Sequence record: OR644643.1
DNA length: 64,000 nt
Strand: one strand, 5' to 3'
Origin: Klebsiella phage NU-KP11
The notes beneath the pieces are model-generated. The model had not been told where the DNA came from. It did no database searches and worked only from the letters and a program-made list of their open reading frames with translations. The position numbers and the translations under genes were made by a program. This document shows, in pieces, positions 5,765 through 59,856 of the stretch (within the stretch, counting starts at the first letter, position 1; each line of letters opens with the position of its first letter).

Positions 5765-5791
5765 GTGATGTTCCTTTTGTTGGGGTTAAAA

Positions 5792-5805
5792 GCCCCCGAA
5801 GGGGC
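5792..5805 (-). terminator. Intrinsic terminator (GCCCC-UUCG-GGGGC plus U-run on the minus strand)
   Basis: Plus strand reads AAAAGCCCCCGAAGGGGCAACTTTTT. T-runs on both sides mean it could act bidirectionally. Confidence 0.55.
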
Positions 5806-5811
5806 AACTTT

Positions 5812-6075
5812 TTAGTAAGATCTGATTCTTAACTTAGTGATAGTTACCAGGTTTTTAGCGTGGGCTTTACATGCCGCTGGGAGACTGCTTTTCTCCGCGC
5901 TATGCTGGCGCATCAACCAGTTAAACATCCCTTCCAGACTACGGTTACTGTAGTGAACTACGTTTTCAACAACCAGTACGATATCACCGTCACTGTCCAT
6001 CAACAGGATCATGCGTCCACCCATTGCATTAGAAATAATCTGGTCATCGTGGAAATCTTTGATTGTTCTAGCCAT
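5812..6075 (-). CDS. Hypothetical protein
   Basis: The start is moved to the internal MARTIKDF. That Met has a GGAAC/AAAGG SD and lies directly downstream of a TGGTATAGT extended -10 and the conserved CATCGAAACGAAACA leader. Confidence 0.5.
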   Translation of the reverse strand: MARTIKDFHDDQIISNAMGGRMILLMDSDGDIVLVVENVVHYSNRSLEGMFNWLMRQHSAEKSSLPAACKAHAKNLVTITKLRIRSY

Positions 6076-6111
6076 TTTCGTAGTTCCTTTTGTCTGTTTC
6101 GTTTCGATGAA

Positions 6112-6510: not shown

Positions 6511-6701
6511 TTACGGTATTTGATTGATTGGTTCATTGCAGAGATAATGCCAGATTCTTGCATGTTAGAAGCGCAATAGACTTCGGCAACCTGGATTTCG
6601 CGGTCATAGAGGTAAACACTACCACGAAAAGTTTTCAAGTGAGCGAATCCGCAATCTTTAACCAGGTTAAGGAATTCTGCTTTCTTCATCATGTGAGCCA
6701 T
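6498..6701 (-). CDS. Hypothetical protein
   Basis: The start is moved to MAHMMKK. A full TTGCAA-17-TATAGT promoter and the CATTGAAACGAAACA leader lie immediately upstream. Confidence 0.5.
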   Translation of the reverse strand: MAHMMKKAEFLNLVKDCGFAHLKTFRGSVYLYDREIQVAEVYCASNMQESGIISAMNQSIKYRKWMG

Positions 6702-6735: not shown

Positions 6736-6775
6736 ACTATACAAAAAAGCCCCCTGCATTGCAAGAGGCTTCTTT
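6736..6775 (-). promoter_or_regulatory. Terminator-promoter module (TTGCAA in hairpin, 17 bp, TTGTATAGT) plus leader CATTGAAACGAAACA
   Basis: Minus strand reads AAGCCTCTTGCAATGCAGGGGGCTTTTTTGTATAGTgtgttCATTGAAACGAAACA. Confidence 0.5.
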
Positions 6776-6789
6776 AACAAAAAGTGCTA

Positions 6790-7359
6790 TTAAACGGCTT
6801 CTGTTTTCACTTCTAAACCAAGTTTAGCAAGCGCTTCAACTGCCATGAAATGATTTTCAAACGGAACTTCAACAGAAATTCGAATTGTTGTCGGTGTTGG
6901 ATCAGTCAGATATTTTGTCATTTGACGATCTTTCTGGTTTTTGCAAAGGATATCCGCCAGCGCTTCTACCGCGTCAGAATTGAAATCGTATGCATAATCA
7001 AGTCGGGATTGCACATAACGCATGTTGCGTTGAACATAATCCGGATATTCTTCAACGATCGGGGTTGCAACAGCCGCTTCGCTCATGCATTCAAAGTTAG
7101 GTTTTCGGAAAATACCAACACACTTATCATCGGATTCGTTATATACGAAAATAAATGCGTTGCTGTTCATGATATGGACGCACTGATACACTGGATGTCG
7201 GTAAATCACTTTCAGTACTTTCTTCACAGAAGGTTTGATAATGTGATTGGTTTCGAAGCGGGAACCTTCGGTTACTGTCAGCAGAGATTTTACTTCGTCG
7301 ATATGTTTACCGGACAGGTTTGCCATAAGGGTTTTGTGTTTCTGATAACTACTAGTCAT
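6790..7359 (-). CDS. Hypothetical protein (about 189 aa)
   Basis: The ORF-track Met is a TTG. The first ATG is MTSSYQ (7359). A TTGACT-17-TATATT promoter and ATCGAAACG leader lie upstream. Confidence 0.5.
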   Translation of the reverse strand: MTSSYQKHKTLMANLSGKHIDEVKSLLTVTEGSRFETNHIIKPSVKKVLKVIYRHPVYQCVHIMNSNAFIFVYNESDDKCVGIFRKPNFECMSEAAVATPIVEEYPDYVQRNMRYVQSRLDYAYDFNSDAVEALADILCKNQKDRQMTKYLTDPTPTTIRISVEVPFENHFMAVEALAKLGLEVKTEAV

Positions 7360-7394: not shown

Positions 7395-7437
7395 AATATA
7401 ACAAAGCCCCCGACCGGAGTCAAGGGCTTTTTATTAA
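7395..7437 (-). promoter_or_regulatory. Terminator-promoter module after the ligase gene (TTGACT in hairpin, 17 bp, TGTTATATT) plus leader ATCGAAACG
   Basis: Minus strand reads TAATAAAAAGCCCTTGACTCCGGTCGGGGGCTTTGTTATATTgcatATCGAAACG. Confidence 0.5.
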
Positions 7438-9803: not shown

Positions 9804-10041
9804 CTACCCCAGCATCAAAATCGACTTTATCAAAGACAACGCCGTTTGATGCACATTCCTTAACATAGGATTCAATAACAACCATGTTATTTGCGCCGAT
9901 GGTAACATAATACACACCTGCTTTATAGATAACACTCTGAATCAGCGTTGAACGTAGTGCATGTTGCGCATACAGTAACGCTAATGGATTAATCGCGCCT
10001 TTGAACAGGAACACGCATTCTACTCTTTCTTTTTCACTCAT
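9778..10041 (-). CDS. Hypothetical protein
   Basis: 87-aa ORF with overlap coupling. Confidence 0.4.
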   Translation of the reverse strand: MSEKERVECVFLFKGAINPLALLYAQHALRSTLIQSVIYKAGVYYVTIGANNMVVIESYVKECASNGVVFDKVDFDAGVDAVYMYKG

Positions 10042-10478
10042 AACAGATCTCTCAATCGGGTTAAGTTGCGTACAAACTCTCTTTCAGTCAGTACAGTTTC
10101 ATTTATTTTATTCTTTCCCATTGAATGTGTCAAGGTACTTTTTCCGGTTGCTGCCAGCGCACGGCGAAACCCTTCATTAAGGAATAACGCATTATATGCG
10201 TTTTCAATCAGGATTTGATACGCCTCAGAGGAACGATGAATAGGGATACCTTTCCAGTATAGGGTCTGGTTAGTCCACCATTTTTTCTTTTTGCCTTTGA
10301 ACTTTGCAGCCTTACCTACCAGAGTACATACATGGGCTTGCATATCGGGATTACTGAATTTAAGGCTTTGTAAAAAGCCCTCCATTGATGCACATTCTAC
10401 CCCGTCAAACGTGAATGGATGAGGGGCGAAGTTGCTCAACGCGCATGATGGGTATTGGCTACCCGAACCAATGTCCAT
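10038..10478 (-). CDS. NADAR/YbiA-like domain protein
   Basis: SNFAPHPFTFDGVECASMEGFLQSLKF aligns with E. coli YbiA SNFAAWPIKVDGKTWPTSEHYFQAQKF. The length (146 aa) is typical for the family. Confidence 0.65.
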   Translation of the reverse strand: MDIGSGSQYPSCALSNFAPHPFTFDGVECASMEGFLQSLKFSNPDMQAHVCTLVGKAAKFKGKKKKWWTNQTLYWKGIPIHRSSEAYQILIENAYNALFLNEGFRRALAATGKSTLTHSMGKNKINETVLTEREFVRNLTRLRDLL

Positions 10479-11513: not shown

Positions 11514-11592
11514 ACTATAATGAAATGTGCGAAGGGAGTCAACAACTTTTTATGTAAAAAACGAAAAAAGCCGCTACCTTTCGGCAACGGCT
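11514..11592 (-). promoter_or_regulatory. Terminator hairpin plus U-run, followed by a consensus TTGACT-17-TATAGT promoter (minus strand)
   Basis: Minus strand reads AGCCGTTGCCGAAAGGTAGCGGCTTTTTTCGTTTTTT ... TTGACTcccttcgcacatttcatTATAGT. Confidence 0.5.
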
Positions 11593-11598
11593 TGATTT

Positions 11599-17212: not shown

Positions 17213-17532
17213 TTGTCGTATTCCGCCATATACTCTTCGAAGGACTTGTTGATCTTGATTTCGATCAGTCCTGGTTTTTTAAACAGCAGATCTTTACGTC
17301 CGGCATCCTTGACCAACTGCTGATCCTTACCTTTTTGTTCGACATAGATCACAGTATTGCTTGTATTTGTCTCTTTTACTTTCTTCACATCGTCTTGCAA
17401 AGATTTTATATCCTTGCGTAATGATGCATTTTCAATTTTGGTATCGACTGCAATGTAAAAAAGGGCTATCAAAGATAGCCCCACGATCACAGGCCATACC
17501 CAAGATGATATCTTAGGCATTATGAACCTCAT
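17209..17532 (-). CDS. i-spanin-like inner-membrane coiled-coil protein (T4 pseT.3 analog)
   Basis: N-terminal TM (WVWPVIVGLSLIALFYIAV) followed by a coiled-coil. Makes a 4-nt overlap with the o-spanin gene. Confidence 0.5.
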   Translation of the reverse strand: MRFIMPKISSWVWPVIVGLSLIALFYIAVDTKIENASLRKDIKSLQDDVKKVKETNTSNTVIYVEQKGKDQQLVKDAGRKDLLFKKPGLIEIKINKSFEEYMAEYDK

Positions 17533-18686
17533 TTATATTGTTCAGGAATGAACTGGTCGTAATTTTTAACCATCATTTCAATGATGCGGTCGACCAGTTT
17601 TTGCGGATCGGTTTCTTCGAAATACTTCATAAGAGGCCCGAAGATGATCCGACCGTCGTTTGACAAATCCGCGCTTAGACTGATAGCAAAATCTTTACGC
17701 GATTTCCCTTTGTTATCTTCAATAGCTTTGAATGCTTTTGCACTCAAACGATTGAGACTATCAAGGAAAAGTTTTTCGAAATCGTCAATCTTTTTCAGAG
17801 AGACCAGATCCGAACTGAATAGCTGTTTCAGGTCATCGACCGTATTCTCAACAATATTTAGGAAAAGATCCTTATTGTTGGTGATGCTATCTTTTGTGCG
17901 ATGCAGGTTGACATACCAGTTTGTTTTGATTTTTACAAACCCTTTCGTTGTCAGAACAACATAGCCTTCGAATCCTTCATTCTGATATGCTTCTTTTGCG
18001 AATGCATCCAGATCCAGTACTTCGATATTCTCACGCTTAACCAGATACGCACGTAACAGCGCGTCAGCAAAGAGTTCATCATAAGGGATGTATTCACCCG
18101 TGATGTTGTGACGAACGTTCAGGATACGCAGATCAGGAGAATCATAACCAACGACAATACGGTTTTTCGGGGAAACGTATTCCATGTTCACCGTATAGTT
18201 TTCTTTAGCGATCTCAGTTAAGCGGGTCAGCAATTCACGATTTGCCATTAACACGCTGTGCGCATCCATAGCTTGTTCTGATTTAACCGAACCTTTAGAC
18301 TTGACCGCCAGAAATCCACCGTCAAGGAAAGTTGAGATCAAGGAACCATCTTCTTTAATCATCACGTCTAAAACTTCGCCTAATTCAATAGGAGACTCGT
18401 TAAGCGCTTCCCATGCCTTTACCTCGGCATAGTTAAAAAACTTCTCCATAGGGCGGCTGATGATTGATACGGGGGTATCTCCATCCATTTCAAACATGAT
18501 ACCGCGACATTCCAGAGCACCAGGCTTTAGCCAGTCTGTATATGAGGCCATGCGATAGTTAAAGATTCTAACAGGTGTACCCATCACGGTTACTTGATCA
18601 ACGAAGAAAAATGTTTCGGATTCACCACACAACTGCATGAGTTGTTTGTAAAGGGTATTGATAATTTTAGTTTGTGCCTTTGTCAT
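17529..18686 (-). CDS. rnlA: RNA ligase 1
   Basis: [37 protein letters not shown] aligns with T4 Rnl1 [37 protein letters not shown]. Confidence 0.9.
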   Translation of the reverse strand: [385 protein letters not shown]

Positions 18687-19035: not shown

Positions 19036-19365
19036 TTATATATCCAAAAAGTCAAGTGATCTTTTCTTACCACACAAAACATTAACCACATGCGCGATGT
19101 AATCACCGTGACAGGGAAGAGGCGCACAGGTACAACCAAGCCTCTTTCCATCAAGTTCTTTCAATTCTTCAATCGTGATCGCCCCAGTACGAACCTGATT
19201 CTGGAACCAGGGGATAAACGCTAAAATGTTTTCTCCCCTGGTTCCTGTGTGATAAGGGTTGCCGAACTTCGTACCTCTTTGAATATCGACATCCCAATCA
19301 GTTTTGTACTTGTTTACTACCCGACAATCACGCGTATTTGCTGGCCCATTTTGCATACGCTTCAT
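19036..19365 (-). CDS. DUF4326-like protein
   Basis: Motifs TKFGNPY and LGCTCAPLPCHGDY match what I remember of the DUF4326 signature. The first ATG follows a GTG. Its 5' end overlaps the nrdB 3' end by about 38 nt. Confidence 0.5.
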   Translation of the reverse strand: MKRMQNGPANTRDCRVVNKYKTDWDVDIQRGTKFGNPYHTGTRGENILAFIPWFQNQVRTGAITIEELKELDGKRLGCTCAPLPCHGDYIAHVVNVLCGKKRSLDFLDI

Positions 19366-24768: not shown

Positions 24769-25100
24769 TCAGAACTCCATGCATTTTTCAAAGTAAATCT
24801 TTGTTGGGAATTAATAATCGTAGCGCGAATAACAGCAAGTTTCATTTCTTCAAATTTATTTCGCGTCATATACAAACCAATCAAAGGAAAATAGAGCCTT
24901 TCCCATTTGTAAGTGTCGCTTACTTCTTTAACAGCATTGATTAAAATCTCAGCCATTTGAAAATCGGTAGGAGGAACCCAACCAAGATTAATATAAATCC
25001 GTTTTTGTGTACCTTCTTTCAGATTTTCCAAACGTAACCATGTTGGACAACTCATAATATTTTCCTCAAATAAAAAGGGAACTGCGTTAACAGTTCCCAT
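24765..25100 (-). CDS. Hypothetical protein
   Basis: 111-aa ORF with a GAGGAAAA SD, directly after a terminator hairpin. Confidence 0.45.
   Translation of the reverse strand: MGTVNAVPFLFEENIMSCPTWLRLENLKEGTQKRIYINLGWVPPTDFQMAEILINAVKEVSDTYKWERLYFPLIGLYMTRNKFEEMKLAVIRATIINSQQRFTLKNAWSSE
25078..25099 (-). terminator. Intrinsic terminator downstream of the J-domain gene
   Basis: Minus strand reads GGGAACTGTTAACGCAGTTCCCTTTTTATTTG. Confidence 0.55.
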
Positions 25101-25114
25101 TATAGTTCATTTGA

Positions 25115-26824
25115 TTAGTAAGTCAAGCGCCACAATTGAATTGCTGCATCAACTTCCTTCTTGATATCTTCCGGAGTGTCTTTGCGCTGTGCTTTGACTA
25201 ACATAGTCATCATTTTACGAATAGTGTTGTTCATATTCGCTTTCTCACGTGCTGCATGAACAGCCTGTGATTTTTCCACTTCCGGTGTATCTTTCTTAGC
25301 CGCCTGTGGTTTGGTAGGCTGTGCGCCGATTTCGTCTTTCTGTTTAGGTGCTTTTTGCTCTGCTTCCTTCTTCACATGAGGCGCGGAGAATTTACCCGCT
25401 TTGAAGTTAGAATTCATTTGATCTAAAGCGCTCTTAACAGTGTTCCAGTCAGAGATCCCGCGTAAAGATTTCAGAGTATCAGTGAGCAGGCTAATGCTTG
25501 CGCCTTTGGTATCTTCTGCGATATCGATTCCTTTCAACCACTCAATGTGTTTCTGACCAGAGTACGTGAAATTAAAGCTACTGAATGAGTAGTATGCTTT
25601 ACGGTTTACAACAATACGCTTGAAGTTGATAGTAACACCAGCGCCGTTATCAAATTCAACATAACCGCTGGTAGGCATTACACGAGCACCAATATCTTTT
25701 AGTGCTGCGAAGTATTCCTCTTTACCGATACGATTAACAGTGCGTTTTGGCTTCTCTTCTGGTTTTGGTGCGGCTTCCTGAGCAGCTACACGTTTAACAA
25801 AAGATGCTGAACGATGTCCCGCCGCAAACTCTGCGTTCATCTTATCGATCGCGTTCACAACTCCTTGAACACTCGGTTTCAGTTTCTGCAACTCTTTGAA
25901 CGTATCAACGATCATATCCAGGCAAGCGCCGTCCTCATCTTCGAACATTGTTCCGCGAAGTTGTGCAGCCGGACGATACTTAGATACAGCAGGATCATAC
26001 ACCGCGCTAAACACATAAGCACCTTTGCGCATGAATACGTGACGATAGAAACGAACTTTCAGTGTACCAACTTCAACAAAGATATCGTTTCCGCTAATGT
26101 CAGCGCCTAACAGCTTACGGAATGATGCCAGGTAATCAGCACGTTTGTACTTGATATTTTTCTGTACAGGGCTGAAAATGCTTTCCAGTTTTTTAGACGG
26201 GAACAGGCTTTCCGGAGTGATCTTATCTGGGTTTTTGCCCCATTGATAATCACGGCTTGCCATTTTATGTTTTTTAGTTCCAACCAGTACAAAGGTACTA
26301 ACAGAAACGCTACCCAGTGCAGATGAATCCGGAGCGGCTAACCCTTGTCCATTCGGAGGGGTGCAGTTGAAACCGAAATCAAAGTAAGCATCACCAGAAG
26401 TGAAACGGAACGAAGCATAAACACCGTGACTACCTTTTGTTACTTCCTGTTTGAAAGTGGTAGGCAATCCAGTGTATTTGGTGAAGTATTCCGCAAATTC
26501 CTGTGCGTTAAATTTGGTGCTGAAATAGTTTTTCGCCACTACAAAGTAAGCATCAACTTTTTCTTCCCATTCTTTCTTTTGACGTGCATAACGTGCGCGA
26601 ACGTCACCAGCAGTCTCAGAACGTGCGCCACTAGGCCCAGTTTTTGTAACGACGTCGTAAGCCTGGTTAATTTTCTGCATTAATTCATTGCTACCACCAC
26701 GGTCGGGGTGATTGCGTAAGGATGCACGTTTGAAGAGTCTGGACATTTCGGCGCTGGTTTCGCTACCAGTTGCGCCCAAAACTTTCAGTGCTTCCTGATA
26801 AGTCATTTTGGATTCGGTGATCAT
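25115..26824 (-). CDS. J-domain (DnaJ-like) protein with two tandem ~150-aa internal repeats
   Basis: N-terminal MTYQEALKVLG...RLFKRASLRNHPDRGGSNELMQKINQAYDVV is a J domain carrying the HPD motif. Residues roughly 190-345 and 350-500 are clear duplicates (ADYLASFRKLLGA/EEYFAALKDIGA, RKGAYVFSAVYD/NRKAYYSFSSFN, AIDKMNAEFAAG/ALDQMNSNFKAG). GAGGAA SD. Terminator hairpins flank it on both sides. Confidence 0.75.
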   Translation of the reverse strand: MITESKMTYQEALKVLGATGSETSAEMSRLFKRASLRNHPDRGGSNELMQKINQAYDVVTKTGPSGARSETAGDVRARYARQKKEWEEKVDAYFVVAKNYFSTKFNAQEFAEYFTKYTGLPTTFKQEVTKGSHGVYASFRFTSGDAYFDFGFNCTPPNGQGLAAPDSSALGSVSVSTFVLVGTKKHKMASRDYQWGKNPDKITPESLFPSKKLESIFSPVQKNIKYKRADYLASFRKLLGADISGNDIFVEVGTLKVRFYRHVFMRKGAYVFSAVYDPAVSKYRPAAQLRGTMFEDEDGACLDMIVDTFKELQKLKPSVQGVVNAIDKMNAEFAAGHRSASFVKRVAAQEAAPKPEEKPKRTVNRIGKEEYFAALKDIGARVMPTSGYVEFDNGAGVTINFKRIVVNRKAYYSFSSFNFTYSGQKHIEWLKGIDIAEDTKGASISLLTDTLKSLRGISDWNTVKSALDQMNSNFKAGKFSAPHVKKEAEQKAPKQKDEIGAQPTKPQAAKKDTPEVEKSQAVHAAREKANMNNTIRKMMTMLVKAQRKDTPEDIKKEVDAAIQLWRLTY

Positions 26825-26897: not shown

Positions 26898-27089
26898 TCA
26901 ATAGATTTTTTCGAGGAACCAAACAGAACTTTTGTTGTTCTTGATTCGCGTCAACTCTATAGGATTATTTTTGAATGCTTCCTCAACATCTTTCATAGTA
27001 ACTATATGTTTTTCTTCAAGAAAATTGTTGTGGAGATAAAACCGCTCTATTTCCGGAGCGGTTTCTAATTCAAATTCTCTTTCTAACAT
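26898..27089 (-). CDS. Hypothetical protein
   Basis: 63-aa acidic ORF downstream of gene 46. Confidence 0.4.
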   Translation of the reverse strand: MLEREFELETAPEIERFYLHNNFLEEKHIVTMKDVEEAFKNNPIELTRIKNNKSSVWFLEKIY

Positions 27090-28789
27090 TATGCACCTCG
27101 ATCATTGATAGTACACTTTGTGAACCGTCCAACTTTCTGCATGGTGATATGTCGGTCGAAATCTTGCGGATCCAGATCCTGATGACTGATAATGATAGTG
27201 TTTCCTTCAATGCTGTCAAGTAAAGTTTTGATTGCATATGAACCTTCTCGGTCAAGTGGCCCGTCAAAAACTTCATCCAGGATCAGAAGGGATAAATCAA
27301 CACCAGAAATTTTACTGGTTACATCGCGCCAGGTGAACAATAAAGCAAGGTTAATACGTGCTCTTTCGCCTTGACTGAACGATGCGTAACTAAAATCATT
27401 ACGACCCAGCGATTTAATAGATTCGTTAAATTCGTCATCCAGAGTGAACTGATAATCAGCACCCAACAGATCCAGATAGTACGCAATCTGTTTATTGAAG
27501 TAAGGAATATAACGTTTAACGATGCTCGCTTTAACGCCGGAATCTTTCAGCAGATCCGTAACAATACCTCTGAAATATTTTTCCTTGACAAATCCGGAAC
27601 GTTTAGAATCAAGTTCCTTTTCATCTTCACGGAGTTTTTCAACTGGGGATTCATCGATCACCACGTCTTCCTGTGCTTTATCCATGACAGCCCGAACACG
27701 TTTAGCCGCTGCAACTTCATTTTGAAGTGTACCGCGTAGTGATTCGTATTTGGATTTCAGCCCATTTAGTGTACGTTGTTGTGTTAGTAAATCATCCATG
27801 ATTTTCTGTAGCTGATCTTGTTTGTTCTTAATCAGCGTAAGTTTCTGAGTACCGTTTTTAATATTCTCGGCAATCTCTTCCATGCGTTCAGGAGTGGGGC
27901 TAATTGGCTGTTTACAGGCCGGACATTCACCACCCTTGCGATACATCACCTCAAGACGCTGCAACTGTTCTACGTTCATTGAGAGGCGTGTATAGCCATC
28001 ACGCAGTTTTTGAATATTTGCTGTTTGGTCTTCACCATTGATCACACATTCTGCGATCTGGGTTTGAAGTTCAACTAATTGCGCTTTAATCTGTTTTGCT
28101 GTTTCTACGTGGGAATCGTAGATATCCTGGTAACGCGCCGTATTCTGATTTGCTTTTGCCCGTTGTTCGTCAATGAACTTTTGATGTGTTGCGATCTGCT
28201 GTTGTACGTGTCCAATCTGCATTGAAAGCGTATCCAGTTCACGGTTAACACCACGGATGTATGATTTGTTCAGTTTGTCCATTTCACTGATGATAGACAA
28301 AGACAACAAATCTTCAACCAGTTTACGGCGATCTGGTGTTTTCAGTTCCATGAAAGGTACATAACCAGCAGTACCCAGAACGATAACCTGTTTAAAGCCC
28401 ACCAGGTTAATATTCAACATTGATTCAAGCTGTGACTGATAATCACCAGCGGCTGAATCTTCCGGCAGTTTTTCGCCATTCTTCCAGATCTCAAATACTT
28501 TCGGCTTTTGTCCACGGATGATTTTATATTCATCATTGCCGTATTCGATCAACAGTTCAACCAGACATTTTTTCTTGTTGATACTGTTCACCAGTTGCCC
28601 GACTTTCAGATCGCGAAATGACTTACCAAAGAGAGCATATGTAAGCGCTTCGATCATGGTGGATTTACCACCGCCGTTTTTACCCGTAATGAGGGTTTTC
28701 TTTGCTGAATCAAAATCAATGACGATCGGTACGTTACCAACCGACAAGATATTTTGATAAGTCAATGTTTTAAATTTGAGTTTCATCAA
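27089..28789 (-). CDS. 46: Recombination endonuclease subunit gp46 (SbcC/Rad50-like)
   Basis: Walker A ITGKNGGGKST. Long central coiled-coil with a CPACKQ zinc hook. C-terminal LILDEVFDGPLD (Walker B/D-loop). 566 aa. Confidence 0.85.
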   Translation of the reverse strand: MMKLKFKTLTYQNILSVGNVPIVIDFDSAKKTLITGKNGGGKSTMIEALTYALFGKSFRDLKVGQLVNSINKKKCLVELLIEYGNDEYKIIRGQKPKVFEIWKNGEKLPEDSAAGDYQSQLESMLNINLVGFKQVIVLGTAGYVPFMELKTPDRRKLVEDLLSLSIISEMDKLNKSYIRGVNRELDTLSMQIGHVQQQIATHQKFIDEQRAKANQNTARYQDIYDSHVETAKQIKAQLVELQTQIAECVINGEDQTANIQKLRDGYTRLSMNVEQLQRLEVMYRKGGECPACKQPISPTPERMEEIAENIKNGTQKLTLIKNKQDQLQKIMDDLLTQQRTLNGLKSKYESLRGTLQNEVAAAKRVRAVMDKAQEDVVIDESPVEKLREDEKELDSKRSGFVKEKYFRGIVTDLLKDSGVKASIVKRYIPYFNKQIAYYLDLLGADYQFTLDDEFNESIKSLGRNDFSYASFSQGERARINLALLFTWRDVTSKISGVDLSLLILDEVFDGPLDREGSYAIKTLLDSIEGNTIIISHQDLDPQDFDRHITMQKVGRFTKCTINDRGA

Positions 28790-30661: not shown

Positions 30662-31185
30662 AGAAAATCTTCCAATGTTGGGAATACTTCCGCTTCCTTG
30701 TCTTTGGTTTTGGTGGCGGAAGCCTCGTACTGAGATAGTTTGTCATGTAGATCTTGAATGAAACCTTCGTCTGCAATACTAACCATATCTGAATCTTCGC
30801 AGTCGTAAACGTGCTCAAGGAAGAATTTATATTTCTTCGCGTTCTCTTTTTTCTCGTACAGAATACGTGTTACGAATGCTTGCCAACATGCTTTGTTAAT
30901 GTAACCGTAAACGTTGGTATAACGAGTTTCATCGAAGTTATGCAGTCCTGAGATTGCAGCGGAAATTCCGTCATCGATCATATCCATTTTCCAATCTTCG
31001 GAATAACGGTTGAAGTTGTAACGACGTGATAGCCCGTTTGCAATATCCATAATAGCAGCACCTAACTCATTAGGCATTTTGCGATCACCTGTTTCGGCGA
31101 TTTGCTTTTTCCATGCACAGAGGATAGGGTATAATTTTTCATTGTCTGCGTAGATATTGGTTGTTTCTTTAGTCATAGTATTCAT
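30658..31185 (-). CDS. 55: Late-transcription sigma factor gp55
   Basis: [64 protein letters not shown] aligns with T4 gp55 [73 protein letters not shown] SD. Confidence 0.88.
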   Translation of the reverse strand: [175 protein letters not shown]

Positions 31186-31208
31186 ATTTCCTCTTTGAAG
31201 TTAAGAAT

Positions 31209-31236
31209 ATTATATAATAACTGTAGACAAAATCAA
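31209..31236 (-). promoter_or_regulatory. Sigma70-like promoter for gene 55 (TTGATT-16-TATAAT, minus strand)
   Basis: Read directly from the minus strand: TTGATTttgtctacagttattaTATAAT, about 30 nt upstream of the gp55 SD. Confidence 0.5.
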
Positions 31237-31261
31237 ATTTCATTCTATATTATTTAAGGTT

Positions 31262-31412
31262 AAAGTAGATCTAATGATCTATAGATCAGATCTAAATTAT
31301 ATAAAATTTATTGATTTTAGTACTTGACCTACAATGATCATTGTAGTAAAATAATTATTAATTAATAAATTATAGATCATAAATTTGATCAGATCAAGTA
31401 TTATTGATCAAA
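31262..31412. promoter_or_regulatory. GATC-rich palindrome array in a 300-bp AT-rich divergent intergenic region
   Basis: Nine GATC sites in about 140 bp. Perfect palindromes TGATCTATAGATCA and CTACAATGATCATTGTAG. TGATCA occurs three times and AGATCT twice. Confidence 0.5.
31324..31352 (+). promoter_or_regulatory. Sigma70-like promoter P1 for rnh (TTGACC-17-TAAAAT) with an 18-bp palindrome in the spacer
   Basis: TTGACCtacaatgatcattgtagTAAAAT. The spacer is the perfect inverted repeat CTACAATGATCATTGTAG, which looks like an operator. Confidence 0.5.
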
Positions 31413-31431
31413 ATTTTTATGGTCTTTTGTA

Positions 31432-31459
31432 TTGACTTCATTTCGTAAGTTACTACAAT
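31432..31459 (+). promoter_or_regulatory. Sigma70-like promoter P2 for rnh (TTGACT-16-TACAAT)
   Basis: TTGACTtcatttcgtaagttacTACAAT, about 30 nt upstream of the rnh SD (GAGG) and the ATG at 31490. Confidence 0.55.
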
Positions 31460-31489
31460 AACCCCGTTCTTTGAAAAATTGAGGTATGT

Positions 31490-32425
31490 ATGAGCAGTTT
31501 TGCAAGCATGTTTAACTTGAACAAGCTGATGCAAGATGAAGGGGAACCCGATGATACTATGGTCATCGATATCTCTAACATTTCCATCGCTACACTGATG
31601 AACAACTTCAAACCAAAGGAACAAGCATCCATCACGATCGAAATGATTCGTCATCTGGTGCTTGACACTTTACGGTTTAACGTTGTAAAATTTAAAGGTG
31701 AGTATCCAGAAATCGTGATTGCCTTCGATGACAGAAATTACTGGCGTAGGCAAAAAGCCTGGTACTACAAAAAACGTCGTCAGATCGAACACGAAGAATC
31801 AGAATGGGATTGGGATCGTCTGAACAACTTCCTGAATCCTGTGTTCGAAGAAATCCGTCAGAATATGCCTTATCTCGGATTAAAGGTTGAATTCGCGGAA
31901 GCTGATGATATAATTGCTGTTGTTACGAAAAAAGCTGTTGGTGAAGGTAGACGAGTATTAGTGGTTTCTGCTGATAGCGACTTTACACAACTACAGAAAT
32001 ATAACGGTGTTCGTCAATGGTCGCCTCCCCAGAAAAAATGGGTAACGCCTAAGTACGGTTCACCACGTAACGATCTGCGATACAAAAATATCAAAGGCGA
32101 TAAAAAAGATAGTATCGCTTGCATTAAAATTAGAAATGATTATATTGTGACGAAGGTTGAAGGTGAACGCGCCCCAGCGGTAAAATCCTCTGAGTTAGAG
32201 GCATGGCTGGAGGCAGACGATCCTACAACATTGATGACCCCTGAATGGGCCGCACGTTACAAAGAAAATGAGGAACTACGCGATTTCGAATTTATACCAA
32301 AAGATATTGAAAATTCGATTATTGAAGCGTATAATACTCCAAAATCCGGAAGTAAAGCCAAAATGGAACGTTACTTCATGGATAACAAACTTTCCCGTAT
32401 GTTCGAAAAACTGAGTGATTTTTGA
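31490..32425 (+). CDS. rnh: RNase H (5'-3' exonuclease/FEN)
   Basis: MVRHLVLDTLRFNVVKFK...YWRRQKAWYYKKRR aligns with T4 RNase H MVRHLILNSIKFNVKKAK...YWRRDFAYYYKKNR. 311 aa. Confidence 0.88.
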   Translation: MSSFASMFNLNKLMQDEGEPDDTMVIDISNISIATLMNNFKPKEQASITIEMIRHLVLDTLRFNVVKFKGEYPEIVIAFDDRNYWRRQKAWYYKKRRQIEHEESEWDWDRLNNFLNPVFEEIRQNMPYLGLKVEFAEADDIIAVVTKKAVGEGRRVLVVSADSDFTQLQKYNGVRQWSPPQKKWVTPKYGSPRNDLRYKNIKGDKKDSIACIKIRNDYIVTKVEGERAPAVKSSELEAWLEADDPTTLMTPEWAARYKENEELRDFEFIPKDIENSIIEAYNTPKSGSKAKMERYFMDNKLSRMFEKLSDF

Positions 32426-37233: not shown

Positions 37234-37596
37234 ATGTTAGAAATTCAACTAATCAGCGACGATTCTTTTTTAAAGATCCGTGAAACGCTAACCCGTATTG
37301 GTATTGCAAACAACAAAAAGAAAATGCTCTGGCAATCGTGCCACATTCTGAAAAAGCAAGGTAAGTATTTTATCGTGCATTTTAAAGAACTGTTGAAACT
37401 CGATGGTCGTCAAGTCGATATGACGGAAGAAGACGAACTACGCCGGAACAACATTGCGCGACTTCTCGAAGAGTGGGGCATGGTTAAGATCGTAACCCCT
37501 GGGTTGAAGTTTGCAGAAGAAAACAACTTCCGCGTACTGACTCACTCGCAAAAAGCAGATTGGATCCTCAAGTACAAGTACCGGATCGGTCACTAA
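37234..37596 (+). CDS. regA: Translational repressor RegA
   Basis: 120 aa (T4 RegA is 122 aa). MLEIQLISDDSFLKIRETLTRIGI resembles the T4 RegA N-terminus. It follows 62, as in T4. Confidence 0.7.
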   Translation: MLEIQLISDDSFLKIRETLTRIGIANNKKKMLWQSCHILKKQGKYFIVHFKELLKLDGRQVDMTEEDELRRNNIARLLEEWGMVKIVTPGLKFAEENNFRVLTHSQKADWILKYKYRIGH

Positions 37597-37600
37597 TCAA

Positions 37601-37636
37601 AAAGCCCTTGCATTCTTGCAGGGGCTTTGTTATATT
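37601..37636 (+). promoter_or_regulatory. Terminator-promoter module (hairpin containing TTGCAT -35, 17 bp, TGTTATATT)
   Basis: AAAGCCCTTGCAttcTTGCAGGGGCTTTgtTATATT. The hairpin plus T-run follows the regA stop. The -35 TTGCAT lies inside the stem and the T-run runs into the extended -10. Confidence 0.5.
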
Positions 37637-48192: not shown

Positions 48193-48729
48193 ATGACTAC
48201 TGATAAAACTCCTGTATTTAATTCATGTGCGCACCTGGTTAACCCGGAAGATCTGGAATTTGTAGATTCCGAATATCAAAAGATTCTGGCCCGTAATGGT
48301 GATCCTTTACAATCCATGCTGGATTTACAAAACCATGCACAACAAAGCCTGTCTGATACCCTGCATTGGGTTCCGCGTCCGGATAATCTGGAAACTTGTG
48401 GAGAAATCCTTGATTGGCTGAAACTGCAAGACGACGCGATCGCCGATGAAACCCGCGAATTGTATACCGCTCTGGGTGGAATGTCTCGCGGTGTTAAACC
48501 TGCTTCCGGTGTTTGGAAACCGTGGAAAGCAAATCACCAGGAATTGCGCAATACTAAATTTGCGGATCTGAGTGAAGAGGATCGTTTAGAAGTTCTGTTT
48601 GAACTTATCGATCAGTGGCATTTCTTTATGTGCAAATTCCTGGCGCTGGGTATGGATGCGGAAACCATATACAAACTGTATGCACTGAAACAAGCCGAAA
48701 ACCTCCGCCGTTGGGCTAACAACTACTAA
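48193..48729 (+). CDS. 56: dCTP pyrophosphatase gp56 (MazG-like all-alpha NTP-PPase)
   Basis: CAHLVNPED..ILARNGDPLQSMLDLQNHAQ...PDNLETCGEILDWLKLQDDAIADETRELYTALGGMSRG aligns with T4 gp56 CAHLIEGVD..ILGDEKDPLQVMLDMQRFLQ...PDKLETAGDVVSWMREQKDCIDDEFRELLTSLGEMSRG. Confidence 0.85.
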   Translation: MTTDKTPVFNSCAHLVNPEDLEFVDSEYQKILARNGDPLQSMLDLQNHAQQSLSDTLHWVPRPDNLETCGEILDWLKLQDDAIADETRELYTALGGMSRGVKPASGVWKPWKANHQELRNTKFADLSEEDRLEVLFELIDQWHFFMCKFLALGMDAETIYKLYALKQAENLRRWANNY

Positions 48730-48914
48730 TGGATCCGATCATCGCGCTATTAGCTGTTGGGGTTCTTTCTTATGGTGTTTGCGCGATGATCACATATCTT
48801 TTCGGTTGGTGTGTGTTTCACGTAAATGGCGTTGAAAGAAAACTTTTACTGATTATACTATCAGTGTTTTGGTTTGTTGGAATATTCTACGTTTGTTATG
48901 AGGGGCGAGAATGA
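48729..48914 (+). CDS. Hypothetical small membrane protein
   Basis: 61 aa with two TM segments. Confidence 0.4.
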   Translation: MDPIIALLAVGVLSYGVCAMITYLFGWCVFHVNGVERKLLLIILSVFWFVGIFYVCYEGRE

Positions 48915-51812: not shown

Positions 51813-52090
51813 TCACATTAACTATTATGGATCGCCATTACTACGGGAACACGATTAACGAAGCGAAAGCAAAAGCCTTTGATGATATCATTAACCAGGA
51901 TCTGGTTAAAATTGAATCTGATCGCTATGTCGTGCAACCAGGTGATAGCCTATATTCTATAGCAAAGAAACTGTATGGTGTTGGTGAACTTTGGCCTGAT
52001 ATCGCCAAAATCAACCGTGATTCTATTCCGGATGCACGTCTGATCCATCCTGGTATAGTTCTTCGATTGCCAAAACTGGTAAAAATTTAA
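51809..52090 (+). CDS. LysM-domain-like small protein
   Basis: YVVQPGDSLYSIAKKLYGVGELWPDIAKINRDSIPDARLIHPGIVLRLP resembles a LysM fold. Confidence 0.45.
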   Translation: MITLTIMDRHYYGNTINEAKAKAFDDIINQDLVKIESDRYVVQPGDSLYSIAKKLYGVGELWPDIAKINRDSIPDARLIHPGIVLRLPKLVKI

Positions 52091-52100
52091 AACAAAGCCC

Positions 52101-52130
52101 TTGACTTCGGTTGAGGGCTTTTGTTATATT
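52101..52130 (+). promoter_or_regulatory. Terminator-promoter module (TTGACT inside hairpin, 18 bp, TATATT)
   Basis: AAAGCCCTTGACTtcggttgAGGGCTTTTgtTATATT. Confidence 0.5.
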
Positions 52131-52303
52131 GGGTTCTCAGAAAGGAGATTGATATGAATTTTACTAAATTTGAAATCCGGCTGTTGATTACGCTGGCTAT
52201 TTGCGGAGCGGTATCATTGATTAGTTTGTTAACGTATATCGCTGTAAGAACAACGATATGGCTTCATGACTGGTTTACTGTACTTGACACAATTAAGGGG
52301 TGA
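52121..52303 (+). CDS. Hypothetical small membrane protein
   Basis: 60 aa, one TM segment, AAAGGAG SD. Confidence 0.4.
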   Translation: MLYWVLRKEIDMNFTKFEIRLLITLAICGAVSLISLLTYIAVRTTIWLHDWFTVLDTIKG

Positions 52304-52830: not shown

Positions 52831-52845
52831 CACTTTTTGTTAAAG

Positions 52846-52881
52846 AAGCCTCTTGCATCGCGGGAGGCTTTTTGGTATCTT
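52846..52881 (+). promoter_or_regulatory. Terminator-promoter module (TTGCAT inside hairpin, 17 bp, TGGTATCTT) plus the conserved leader CATCGAAACGAAACA
   Basis: AAGCCTCttgcatcgcggGAGGCTTTTTggTATCTTgtattCATCGAAACGAAACA. Confidence 0.5.
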
Positions 52882-52918
52882 GTATTCATCGAAACGAAAC
52901 AGAGAAAGGAATACGAAA

Positions 52919-53255: not shown

Positions 53256-53480
53256 ATGATGGTTAACGGTTCTCTTTATCAACAAGCAGTTGCACAGTGG
53301 AAACAGAAAGTTCAGGATGCAGAACGCGGGATCGCTTATTGTGATGAAGCGTTGGCAAGTAATCTTGAAAACTGGGAACGCAAAGAGTATGAGAAAGTTA
53401 AGCAACGCCATTTGAACGAACTCCCTGCATTAAAAGAACACTTAAAATATTTGATGGATAACGAAAAAATCCTTGCATAG
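53256..53480 (+). CDS. Hypothetical protein
   Basis: 74-aa ORF with a GGGAGGAAA SD. Confidence 0.45.
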   Translation: MMVNGSLYQQAVAQWKQKVQDAERGIAYCDEALASNLENWERKEYEKVKQRHLNELPALKEHLKYLMDNEKILA

Positions 53481-53515
53481 AATAACCATCTTTGATATAG
53501 TACTTACATCGAAAC
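53473..53515 (+). promoter_or_regulatory. Sigma70-like promoter TTGCAT-17-TGATATAGT plus the conserved leader CATCGAAACGAAACA
   Basis: ccTTGCATagaataaccatctttgaTATAGTacttaCATCGAAACGAAACA. Confidence 0.5.
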
Positions 53516-53539
53516 GAAACACACTTTAGGAGATATACC

Positions 53540-59230: not shown

Positions 59231-59242
59231 TAACAAAGCCTC

Positions 59243-59271
59243 TTGCAATGCAAGAGGCTTTTTGCTATATT
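59243..59271 (+). promoter_or_regulatory. Terminator-promoter module (12-bp hairpin containing TTGCAA, 17 bp, TGCTATATT)
   Basis: AAAGCCTCTTGCaatGCAAGAGGCTTTTTgcTATATT, directly after the gene 52 stop. Confidence 0.55.
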
Positions 59272-59301: not shown

Positions 59302-59856
59302 ATGTTGAAAACTCGTAGTGCAATGGAAGTAACCCACTGGGCGCGTACCATGATGGAAAAACACGGTTTGATCAGTAATGGTTGGACATTCCGGATCAAT
59401 GGACGCATTACAAAAACTCTGGGCCGTTGCAGTTATACCAAAAAACTGATCGAACTATCTGGTCGTCATGTTGCGGAAGATATCTACGAGGATATTTTAG
59501 ACACTCTTTTACACGAAATCGCTCATGCTCTTGTCGGGCGCGGTTATGAACATGGTAAAGTGTGGCAAGCTATGGCCTTGCGCCTGGGTGCTAAACCTTC
59601 ACCGAGTAAAACAACTACAAAGGATGCTAATCTGGTTGATAAGAATGAGATCCTTTACTGTTTGTTCATGAAAGATTATCAAGGCCGTGAAGTCTATCAG
59701 GCTAAAGCTGATAAGAAGTTTTACAACGATGTGATGAACGGTGTTAAGGATATGAAAAACATTTGGATCAGTGGGCGCAAGGCATATACAAAAGGCCGTC
59801 TGTATATCCGTCCAGTAACCCATGAAGAACTTGCATACATTCGCAAAGAGGGGTAA
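59302..59856 (+). CDS. SprT-like zinc metalloprotease domain protein
   Basis: HEIAHAL (HExxH) lies in a SprT-like context (WTFRINGRITKTLGRCSY...LLHEIAHALVG). The start at MLKTRS has an AAGGAG SD. Confidence 0.6.
   Translation: MLKTRSAMEVTHWARTMMEKHGLISNGWTFRINGRITKTLGRCSYTKKLIELSGRHVAEDIYEDILDTLLHEIAHALVGRGYEHGKVWQAMALRLGAKPSPSKTTTKDANLVDKNEILYCLFMKDYQGREVYQAKADKKFYNDVMNGVKDMKNIWISGRKAYTKGRLYIRPVTHEELAYIRKEG

Follow-up and report, generated by a model that had tools for sequence, protein, structure and literature searches.

Recurrent superimposition of terminator-like hairpins on early-promoter sequences in a Klebsiella Slopekvirus: probable PeSL-type cassettes

In the DNA analyzed here, a stretch of 64,000 nucleotides from Klebsiella phage NU-KP11 (OR644643.1; hereafter the window), six intergenic modules share the order stop codon, A-tract, GC hairpin and T-tract, with a −35-like hexamer inside the hairpin and a −10-like box just beyond it. 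The modules are real and highly non-random. We consider it very probable that they are cassettes of the promoter-early stem-loop (PeSL) type, in which an intrinsic terminator is superimposed on a TG-extended σ70-type early promoter, and we infer from their sequence that they would both end and start transcription in this phage.

The phage is a T4-like Klebsiella phage of the genus Slopekvirus with ~99% identity to R6_1, PMBT1 and KP15. A 2-kb stretch around the focal site matched >100 Klebsiella myoviruses, including R6_1, PMBT1 and AYL, at 99.5–99.7% identity, and these relatives are classified in Straboviridae, genus Slopekvirus, KP15 group. Because of these relatives and the gene context (regA, gene 43), the phage is T4-like but not T4, which corrects the T4 framing of a first-pass annotation of the window. 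Two early-gene arms, divergently transcribed, make up the window. Between gp55 (−) and rnh (+), an AT-rich divergent intergenic region (31180–31490) is dense in promoter-like hexamer pairs on both strands and likely serves both arms as their divergent early control region. At 37601, the focal site immediately follows regA and precedes the DNA polymerase gene 43, from which two small ORFs separate it.

Anatomy and recurrence of the modules

The first-pass annotation had listed seven sites at which a GC hairpin and T-run follow a stop codon. Six are fused modules, and the seventh (53473–53501) lacks the hairpin. In the six, an A3–6 tract directly precedes the GC stem and the stop codon lies 1–14 nt upstream; in some copies of the related R6_1 genome, the stop codon abuts or overlaps the A-run. 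The hairpins comprise 12–14 pairs, including 5–6 G-C pairs, and loops of 3–4 nt, followed by at least five T among the nine nucleotides counted from the start of the T-run. Folding of 45–50-nt segments gave RNA minimum free energies of −18.3 to −21.4 kcal/mol (−16 to −21 kcal/mol being given for the hairpin) and z-scores of −4.0 to −4.9, with 0–1 of 200 shuffles folding equally well. In a terminator scan, the fused hairpins were the longest-stemmed candidates in the window. Hairpin, loop, U-tract and post-stop position all agree with the definition of an intrinsic terminator. Since the U-tracts are interrupted (for example, UUUGUUAUA), termination may be partial and attenuation-like.

Promoter sequences are threaded through the same bases. 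The −35-like hexamer (TTGACT, TTGCAT or TTGCAA) forms the apical 5′ arm and loop, the 3′ arm and T-run occupy the promoter spacer, and the T of TGn is provided by the final T of the stem. The T-run had been described as the upstream part of the extended −10, and the U-tract does supply this T. A TATAnT-like box starts 2–4 nt past the hairpin. The reported spacing of 17 bp with one exception of 18 was reproduced (17 nt at six sites, 18 nt at 52101), and the motifs themselves proved more variable than stated: all seven sites carry TTGNNN and, beyond it, a TAnnnT box, with TTGCAA as a third form of the hexamer besides TTGACT and TTGCAT, and TGnTATAnT is exact at five of seven, the others reading TGgTATCTT (52846) and ttgTATAGT (6775(−), with the TG off by one base). 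TG at −15/−14, the mark of an extended −10, is present at six of the seven sites, the exception being 6775(−). From the −10 to the next ATG is a distance of 23–38 nt, and a GGAG-like Shine–Dalgarno (SD) sequence precedes the ATG.

The focal module after regA (37599–37636, +) has its A-tract and hairpin at 37601–37628 (−20.4 kcal/mol, z −4.2), the −35 TTGCAT at 37608–37613, TGt at 37628–37630 and the −10 TATATT at 37631–37636, between the regA stop (37594–37596) and the next ATG (37665). On the same strand, the module at 52094–52130 has a hairpin with a UUCG loop (52094–52121, −18.7 kcal/mol), TTGACT at 52101–52106, an 18-nt spacer and TATATT at 52125–52130; the upstream stop codon is at 52088–52090 and the next ATG, 52154, opens a 49-aa ORF. 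This hydrophobic ORF (52154–52303, +) has a good SD sequence and is unannotated in R6_1 and named KP15_14B in KP15. In several other records, a ‘tail protein’ or ‘peptidoglycan-binding protein’ CDS overlies the 52094 module, probably through mis-annotation. The third plus-strand module (52842–52881) combines a hairpin at 52843–52873 (−19.6 kcal/mol) with TTGCAT (52853–52858), TGg and TATCTT (52876–52881). After topoisomerase gp52, a module at 59235–59271 (+) contains a perfectly palindromic hairpin (59235–59261, −18.3 kcal/mol), TTGCAA (59243–59248), TGc and TATATT (59266–59271), followed by the ATG at 59302 of an ORF with an SprT-like domain.

Two modules lie on the minus strand. The one after DNA ligase (7395–7432) has its hairpin at 7430–7403 (−20.7 kcal/mol), TTGACT at 7423–7418, TGt, TATATT at 7400–7395 and the next ATG at 7359. 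The other (6736–6775) has the most stable hairpin (6775–6745, −21.4 kcal/mol), TTGCAA at 6764–6759 and TATAGT at 6741–6736, with no properly placed TGn and the next ATG at 6701. This copy and the 52842 module have ~95 nt in common, including the upstream flank TAGCACTTTTTGTT.

The seventh site (53473–53501, +) is a promoter-only relative without a hairpin (−0.7 kcal/mol, z +0.7). It consists of TTGCAT (53473–53478), TGa and TATAGT (53496–53501) and thereby keeps the arrangement TTGCAT-17-TGaTATAGT together with the leader of the fused modules. Its TTGCAT overlaps the TAG stop of ORF 53256–53480 at the last base of the −35. At the equivalent site, the KP15 record annotates a promoter and no terminator. 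The site resembles a decayed module (AAAAAATCCTTGCAT versus AAAAAGCCCTTGCAT).

A genome-wide motif scan, which the first-pass annotation had proposed, bore out the recurrence. For this census, we used a regular-expression pattern combined with a folding check on R6_1, a complete genome near-identical to the window. R6_1 contains 13 copies fitting the operational pattern and one with an ACCCC stem, 13–14 in total; a bulged copy is located at 88066. In all 13–14, the start of the −35 is 7–10 nt inside the hairpin, and the −10 begins 0–4 nt beyond it. Their upstream neighbors include DNA ligase, regA, topoisomerase gp52 and nrdD, and six copies are situated among small hypothetical ORFs in the 55–88-kb arm.

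Among 78 hairpin-plus-T candidates in R6_1, 11 carry an in-register promoter, compared to 0.30 expected from the genome-wide density of comparable promoter-like matches (Poisson P ~4e-14). In the window, the pattern matched 19 times versus 0.16 per window expected under a first-order Markov null, the 19 being overlapping matches from the six real modules plus one hairpin-less false hit. Generic σ70 promoter-like matches occur in the window at chance level (39–50 versus ~36–40 expected per 16 kb); promoter counts are therefore uninformative, and significance attaches only to the in-register combination.

Pairing in the hairpin and identity of the promoter

To distinguish structure in RNA from structure in DNA, we compared copies of the hairpin with each other and between genomes. 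Across eight distinct GCCC-type copies, 100% of the cells of the 12-pair helix form standard pairs. Two apical pairs, at −35 positions 4 and 5, vary on both sides (A-U to C-G; C-G to A-U or G-C), and three further pairs switch between U-A and U·G or between G-C and G·U. None of 500 shuffles scored as high as the real copies in pairing or covariation, and the signal was lost when partner columns were slid by 1–3; as the copies are paralogs, this covariation counts as support and not as proof. G·U pairs, 1–3 per hairpin, occur in five of the six window hairpins and become C·A mismatches on the opposite strand, and in five of the six modules the antisense hairpin is weaker than the sense hairpin by 5–9 kcal/mol. 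Within the hairpins, the window and R6_1 differ at four positions, two in loops and two converting U-A to U·G. Thus, the regA module has a UUCU loop in the window (37616) and the stable tetraloop UUCG in R6_1 (131366), and the gp52 module, a perfect palindrome in the window, has two U·G pairs in R6_1 (153880–153882, corresponding to 59253–59255 of the window). Covariation and sense-only G·U pairs are what selection for RNA pairing in an intrinsic terminator would leave. The pattern supports an RNA hairpin in the sense transcript, acting as a terminator, and counts against a symmetric cruciform or a palindromic protein operator.

The first-pass annotation had suggested that hairpin formation in the RNA or cruciform extrusion in the DNA might control access to the −35, a proposal that fares poorly here. 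Under such a model, a DNA cruciform or other folding would mask or expose the −35 and tie promoter strength to supercoiling or upstream transcription. The −35 does sit within an inverted repeat of 12–14 bp with a 3–4-nt loop, and the copy at 59235–59261 is a perfect palindrome. We nevertheless regard this reading as very unlikely. Mismatch counting and antisense RNA folding, on which the argument is based, showed that the G·U pairs of five of six copies correspond to A·C mismatches on the complementary strand and that the antisense hairpin loses 5–9 kcal/mol, so a symmetric cruciform is disfavored. What is preserved where copies or genomes differ is RNA-type pairing (U-A to U·G) and not DNA palindromy, the hairpin and ensuing U-tract directly after a stop codon are an RNA terminator signature, and an RNA hairpin would form on the upstream transcript rather than on the promoter DNA.

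A second alternative, to which we assign a slightly lower probability still, concerns the promoter class. In the GenBank records of KP15 (GU295964) and KP27 (HQ918180), these sites already bear ‘promoter’ (MEME) features that overlap with ‘terminator’ (ARNold) features, for example, promoter 593–634 and terminator 602–621 in locus L009, with the feature text ‘putative middle promoter; discovered using MEME’. According to this label, the sites would be MotA-type middle promoters and TTGC(A/T)T an activator box rather than a σ70 −35; TTGCAT indeed matches the T4 Mot box core TGCTT at four of five positions. The T4 Mot box, (a/t)(a/t)(a/t)TGCTTtA, lies near −30 and only 11–13 nt from the −10 (PMC1524935), whereas the 17–18 nt between hexamer and −10 represent σ70 −35 geometry, and about half of the copies read TTGACT. 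Neither Mot box spacing nor the MotA and AsiA on which a MotA-dependent middle promoter relies was found: a tblastn search of R6_1 with T4 MotA and AsiA yielded no homolog (E > 2; control gp52, 2e-110), a result that very distant homologs could escape. RB43, whose genus carries the same module, has no motA (PMC1524935). The ‘putative middle’ label is, therefore, doubtful on the grounds of geometry, the TTGACT copies, the missing MotA and AsiA in R6_1 and the motA-less RB43.

The gene following gp52 (59302–59856, +) occupies the slot held by motA.1 and motA in T4. Considered as a MotA candidate, it was rejected, as it encodes an SprT-like metalloprotease domain (Pfam E 8e-14).

An early σ70-type promoter is in better agreement with the conserved features on either side of the −10. 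All copies have an invariant TTG at one and the same position of the stem, with TATAnT at a fixed distance of 17–18 nt, and most have TGn. As −35 elements, TTGCAT and TTGCAA match weakly (3–4 of 6 positions), so some copies may rely mainly on TGn and the −10. Downstream, a conserved leader, CATCGAAACGAAACA at 52887–52901 (+), begins ~6 nt past the −10, close to where transcription is expected to start; further copies are at 53507–53521 (+), 7391–7383 (−) and 6730–6716 (−). Across window and R6_1 copies, it takes the form (C)ATCGAAAC(GAAACA) with an onset 5–7 nt after the −10, and it is also kept in KP27 and a Cronobacter Pseudotevenvirus. TCGAAA occurs at the leader position in 7 of 13 R6_1 modules (P ~3e-13). 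The heptamer TCGAAAC is not enriched window-wide (14 versus 13.3 expected), and only its position after the −10 is significant. The leader could represent an initial transcribed sequence or a 5′ UTR element; the T7 A1 transcript likewise starts AUCGA.

Two further readings seem to us the least credible and equally so. If the modules were only terminators, the −35 and −10 would be by-products of the hairpin and its T-rich tail, an idea favored by the ability of a U-tract followed by AT-rich sequence to mimic a −10 and by the chance frequency of generic promoter-like matches noted above. It does not account for the fixed distance between TATAnT and the invariant TTG in every copy with TGn in most, for the promoter and leader that exist without a hairpin at 53473, or for the conserved leader, SD sequence and ATG that always lie downstream, and the other terminators of the window, mostly of the GGGGC-tetraloop-GCCCC type, lack TTG and all other promoter features. 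Alternatively, the palindrome might be an operator through which a dimeric phage or host DNA-binding protein shuts off early promoters, the RNA hairpin being incidental; an inverted repeat over the −35 with arms highly alike among many copies is a classic repressor-site layout, yet the half-sites covary for complementarity without a fixed sequence, stems vary (GCCC, GCCTC, ACCCC), loops of 3 or 4 nt shift half-site spacing, the G·T asymmetry breaks the DNA dyad, and the flanking A-tract and T-tract and post-stop position are terminator features.

Relation to PeSLs and cassette exchange

Composite elements of this kind are known from other T4-type phages. PeSLs were described in RB49 and phi1 by Arbiol et al. 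2010 (PMC2839356) as repeated, intergenic units comprising an AT-rich stretch with an upstream stop, a σ70-like early promoter, a stable stem-loop, an SD sequence and an ATG. Five subclasses were defined by stem-loop position, including overlap with the −35 or −10, and lacZ fusions of RB49 and phi1 elements demonstrated both terminator and promoter activity (PMC2839356). Mini-circle formation is a further trait of the published elements. Hyperplastic regions are rich in PeSLs, which also flank gene 43 and nrdD, and crossovers between the −10 and SD sequence of a PeSL lead to gain and loss of cassettes (PMC2839356). A later study, by Comeau et al. 2014 (PMC4122927), added T4/PST and KVP40/nt-1 to the phages covered by the concept. 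Slopekvirus was analyzed in neither paper (PMC2839356, PMC4122927), and PeSL-like sequences at the g43 locus of the Pseudotevenvirus RB43 were mentioned in passing by Arbiol et al. (PMC2839356). Our literature search found no PeSL description or transcript map for Slopekvirus. The KP15 and KP27 annotations concern the very same sites in sister phages, with features overlapping as in the fused modules; in the corresponding publication, Maciejewska et al. 2016 (PMC5219037), promoters and terminators are listed separately and no composite element, register or role is described.

The claim that the arrangement had not been described for T4 early promoters, therefore, fails: composite promoter/stem-loop elements, including a −35-overlap subclass, were published in 2010 and 2014, and the overlapping KP15/KP27 annotations also precede it. 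At the level of sequence, the Slopekvirus modules belong to the PeSL class on every count, differing in degree. They have the stop codon and AT-rich stretch, an early promoter with −35, 17–18-nt spacer and −10, a stem-loop, which at six window sites encloses the −35, and an SD sequence and start codon, all in an intergenic position. Both types occur in tens of copies, mostly among small ORFs of unknown function. The 13–14 R6_1 copies include some among small ORFs and others after regA in the gene 43 locus and after nrdD. In both types, close relatives differ by cassettes that were gained, lost or replaced, the crossovers falling between −10 and SD sequence, which for Slopekvirus is documented by the AYL and KP27 junctions and by the cross-genus module described below. 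That one element ends an early transcript and starts the next, as the first-pass annotation had stated outright, is a probable function in view of the anatomy, covariation, sense-strand specificity, promoter-only and terminator-only variants and the RB49/phi1 reporter assays.

The differences in degree emerged from a scan of the first 50 kb of phi1, where the position of the stem-loop varies widely and most lie over the −10 or in the stretch from −35 to −10. In contrast, the register is the same in nearly all fused copies of Slopekvirus, the 5′ arm containing the −35. The phi1 stems consist of G-runs and C-runs, and its regA-43 copy (ATAGGGGtaTTGACA...CCCCTATAAT) has no U-tract after the stem; Slopekvirus hairpins are textbook intrinsic terminators with an A-tract, GC stem, tetraloop, often UUCG, and U-tract. 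The TG-extended −10 and conserved ATCGAAAC leader likewise set them apart from phi1 PeSLs.

Comparison among relatives revealed cassette swaps that break at modules, as predicted by the PeSL model. In BLAST analysis of the ligase-proximal region, groups of close relatives lose similarity to the window at module boundaries. For AYL, KpF2, P61_1 and RCIP0052, similarity ends in the −10/leader of the 6775(−) module, at ~6716; AYL equals the window through this module up to the −10, after which the leader diverges into a different downstream gene. KP27 lacks the cassette consisting of a module and a 189-aa ORF and diverges from the window exactly at the ligase module (7395–7432). There, its ligase stop codon is followed immediately by a module that has the TAGCACTTTTTGTT flank and the same leader and precedes an RB43-like ORF.

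The window and R6_1 differ by no indel at fused modules, which are therefore occasional and not obligatory breakpoints. Indels or replacements between the two were located at 5780–6083, 9555, 10038–10478 (a 440-bp stretch with only 80% identity to R6_1), 17469–17543, 19037–19330, 27074–27147 and 48725–48746, and several adjoin other hairpins, such as 17462–17482(−) and 27038–27065.

Modules also occur across genera. The ~40-nt 52094 module recurs in Pseudotevenvirus phages of Cronobacter, Enterobacter and Citrobacter, where intergenic DNA matches it at 95–100% identity, these matches being confined to the ~40-nt module alone within a 2.3-kb query. In the copy that we read, from Cronobacter phage SemperBestia, the leader and SD sequence are near-identical and the gene downstream is a different one. 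The module was present in 179 phage records altogether, including >110 Slopekvirus genomes and RB43-like phages, and none of the BLAST matches to it fell outside enterobacterial T4-like phages. Among the full-length Slopekvirus genomes listed, 4–6 copies were BLAST-detectable.

Proposed mechanism and its implications

The superimposed arrangement suggests how PeSL-type cassettes of this form might operate. The A-tract would serve both as the outer 5′ arm and as an AT-rich, UP-like region upstream of the −35, TTGNN of the −35 as the apex of the 5′ arm, and the promoter spacer, whose sequence is otherwise free, as the source of the 3′ arm, with the terminator U-tract providing the T of TGn and leading into the −10. 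A polymerase arriving from upstream would transcribe the hairpin and release its RNA within the −10 region, while a new transcript would start ~7 nt after the −10, at the conserved CATCGAAAC. As this start lies past the hairpin, the new transcript would not contain it and would not terminate itself. With terminator and promoter superimposed, each small early gene would thereby form an insulated, self-sufficient cassette of terminator, promoter, leader, SD sequence and ORF, and the ~40–95-bp cassette ends, repeated round the genome, would offer patches of homology for swap, gain and loss.

A more far-reaching idea, which we consider unlikely, is that the fixed register is an adaptation for polymerase hand-off and not mere compaction. 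Single-molecule studies have shown that E. coli RNA polymerase frequently remains DNA-bound once it has terminated at an intrinsic terminator and can reinitiate at promoters nearby (PMC6978380, PMC10372574). In a hand-off, the polymerase would free its RNA on the U-tract while already occupying the next promoter at its −10 and −35. If true, cassettes would be insulated at the RNA level and coupled at the polymerase level, mobile cassettes would inherit transcriptional flux from upstream, and the conserved ATCGAAAC start and leader could belong to the design.

Independently of hand-off, the modules would define early-region transcription units in a genus widely isolated against Klebsiella, and what is likely a GenBank mislabel (‘middle promoter’) can be corrected. 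The concept of PeSLs as mobile regulatory cassettes would reach the Slopekvirus/Pseudotevenvirus lineage, where they take an unusually uniform textbook-terminator form. They reveal no new principle, this kind of element being already known as PeSLs. For applications, the ~40-nt unit might serve as a ready-made, compact insulator-plus-promoter part, and module copies would mark likely recombination breakpoints for comparing or engineering these phages.

Each half of a module agrees with the sequence definition of its own class, the canonical intrinsic terminator and the extended −10 σ70 promoter. In the modules, the two are superimposed base for base instead of being arranged in tandem. The window also provides an unfused tandem at 11514–11593 (−), in which a hairpin (11593–11568) with T-run is followed by an AT-rich stretch and TTGACT-17-TATAGT (11542–11514). 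The reverse order, with the hairpin after the promoter, occurs at 25077–25126 (−): TTGACT-16-TATAAT (25126–25099) is separated by 1 nt from a hairpin and T-run (25098–25077), and the upstream stop codon (25117–25115) lies inside the promoter spacer. The transcript of this promoter would start in the 5′ arm and escape termination, and read-through transcripts would terminate.
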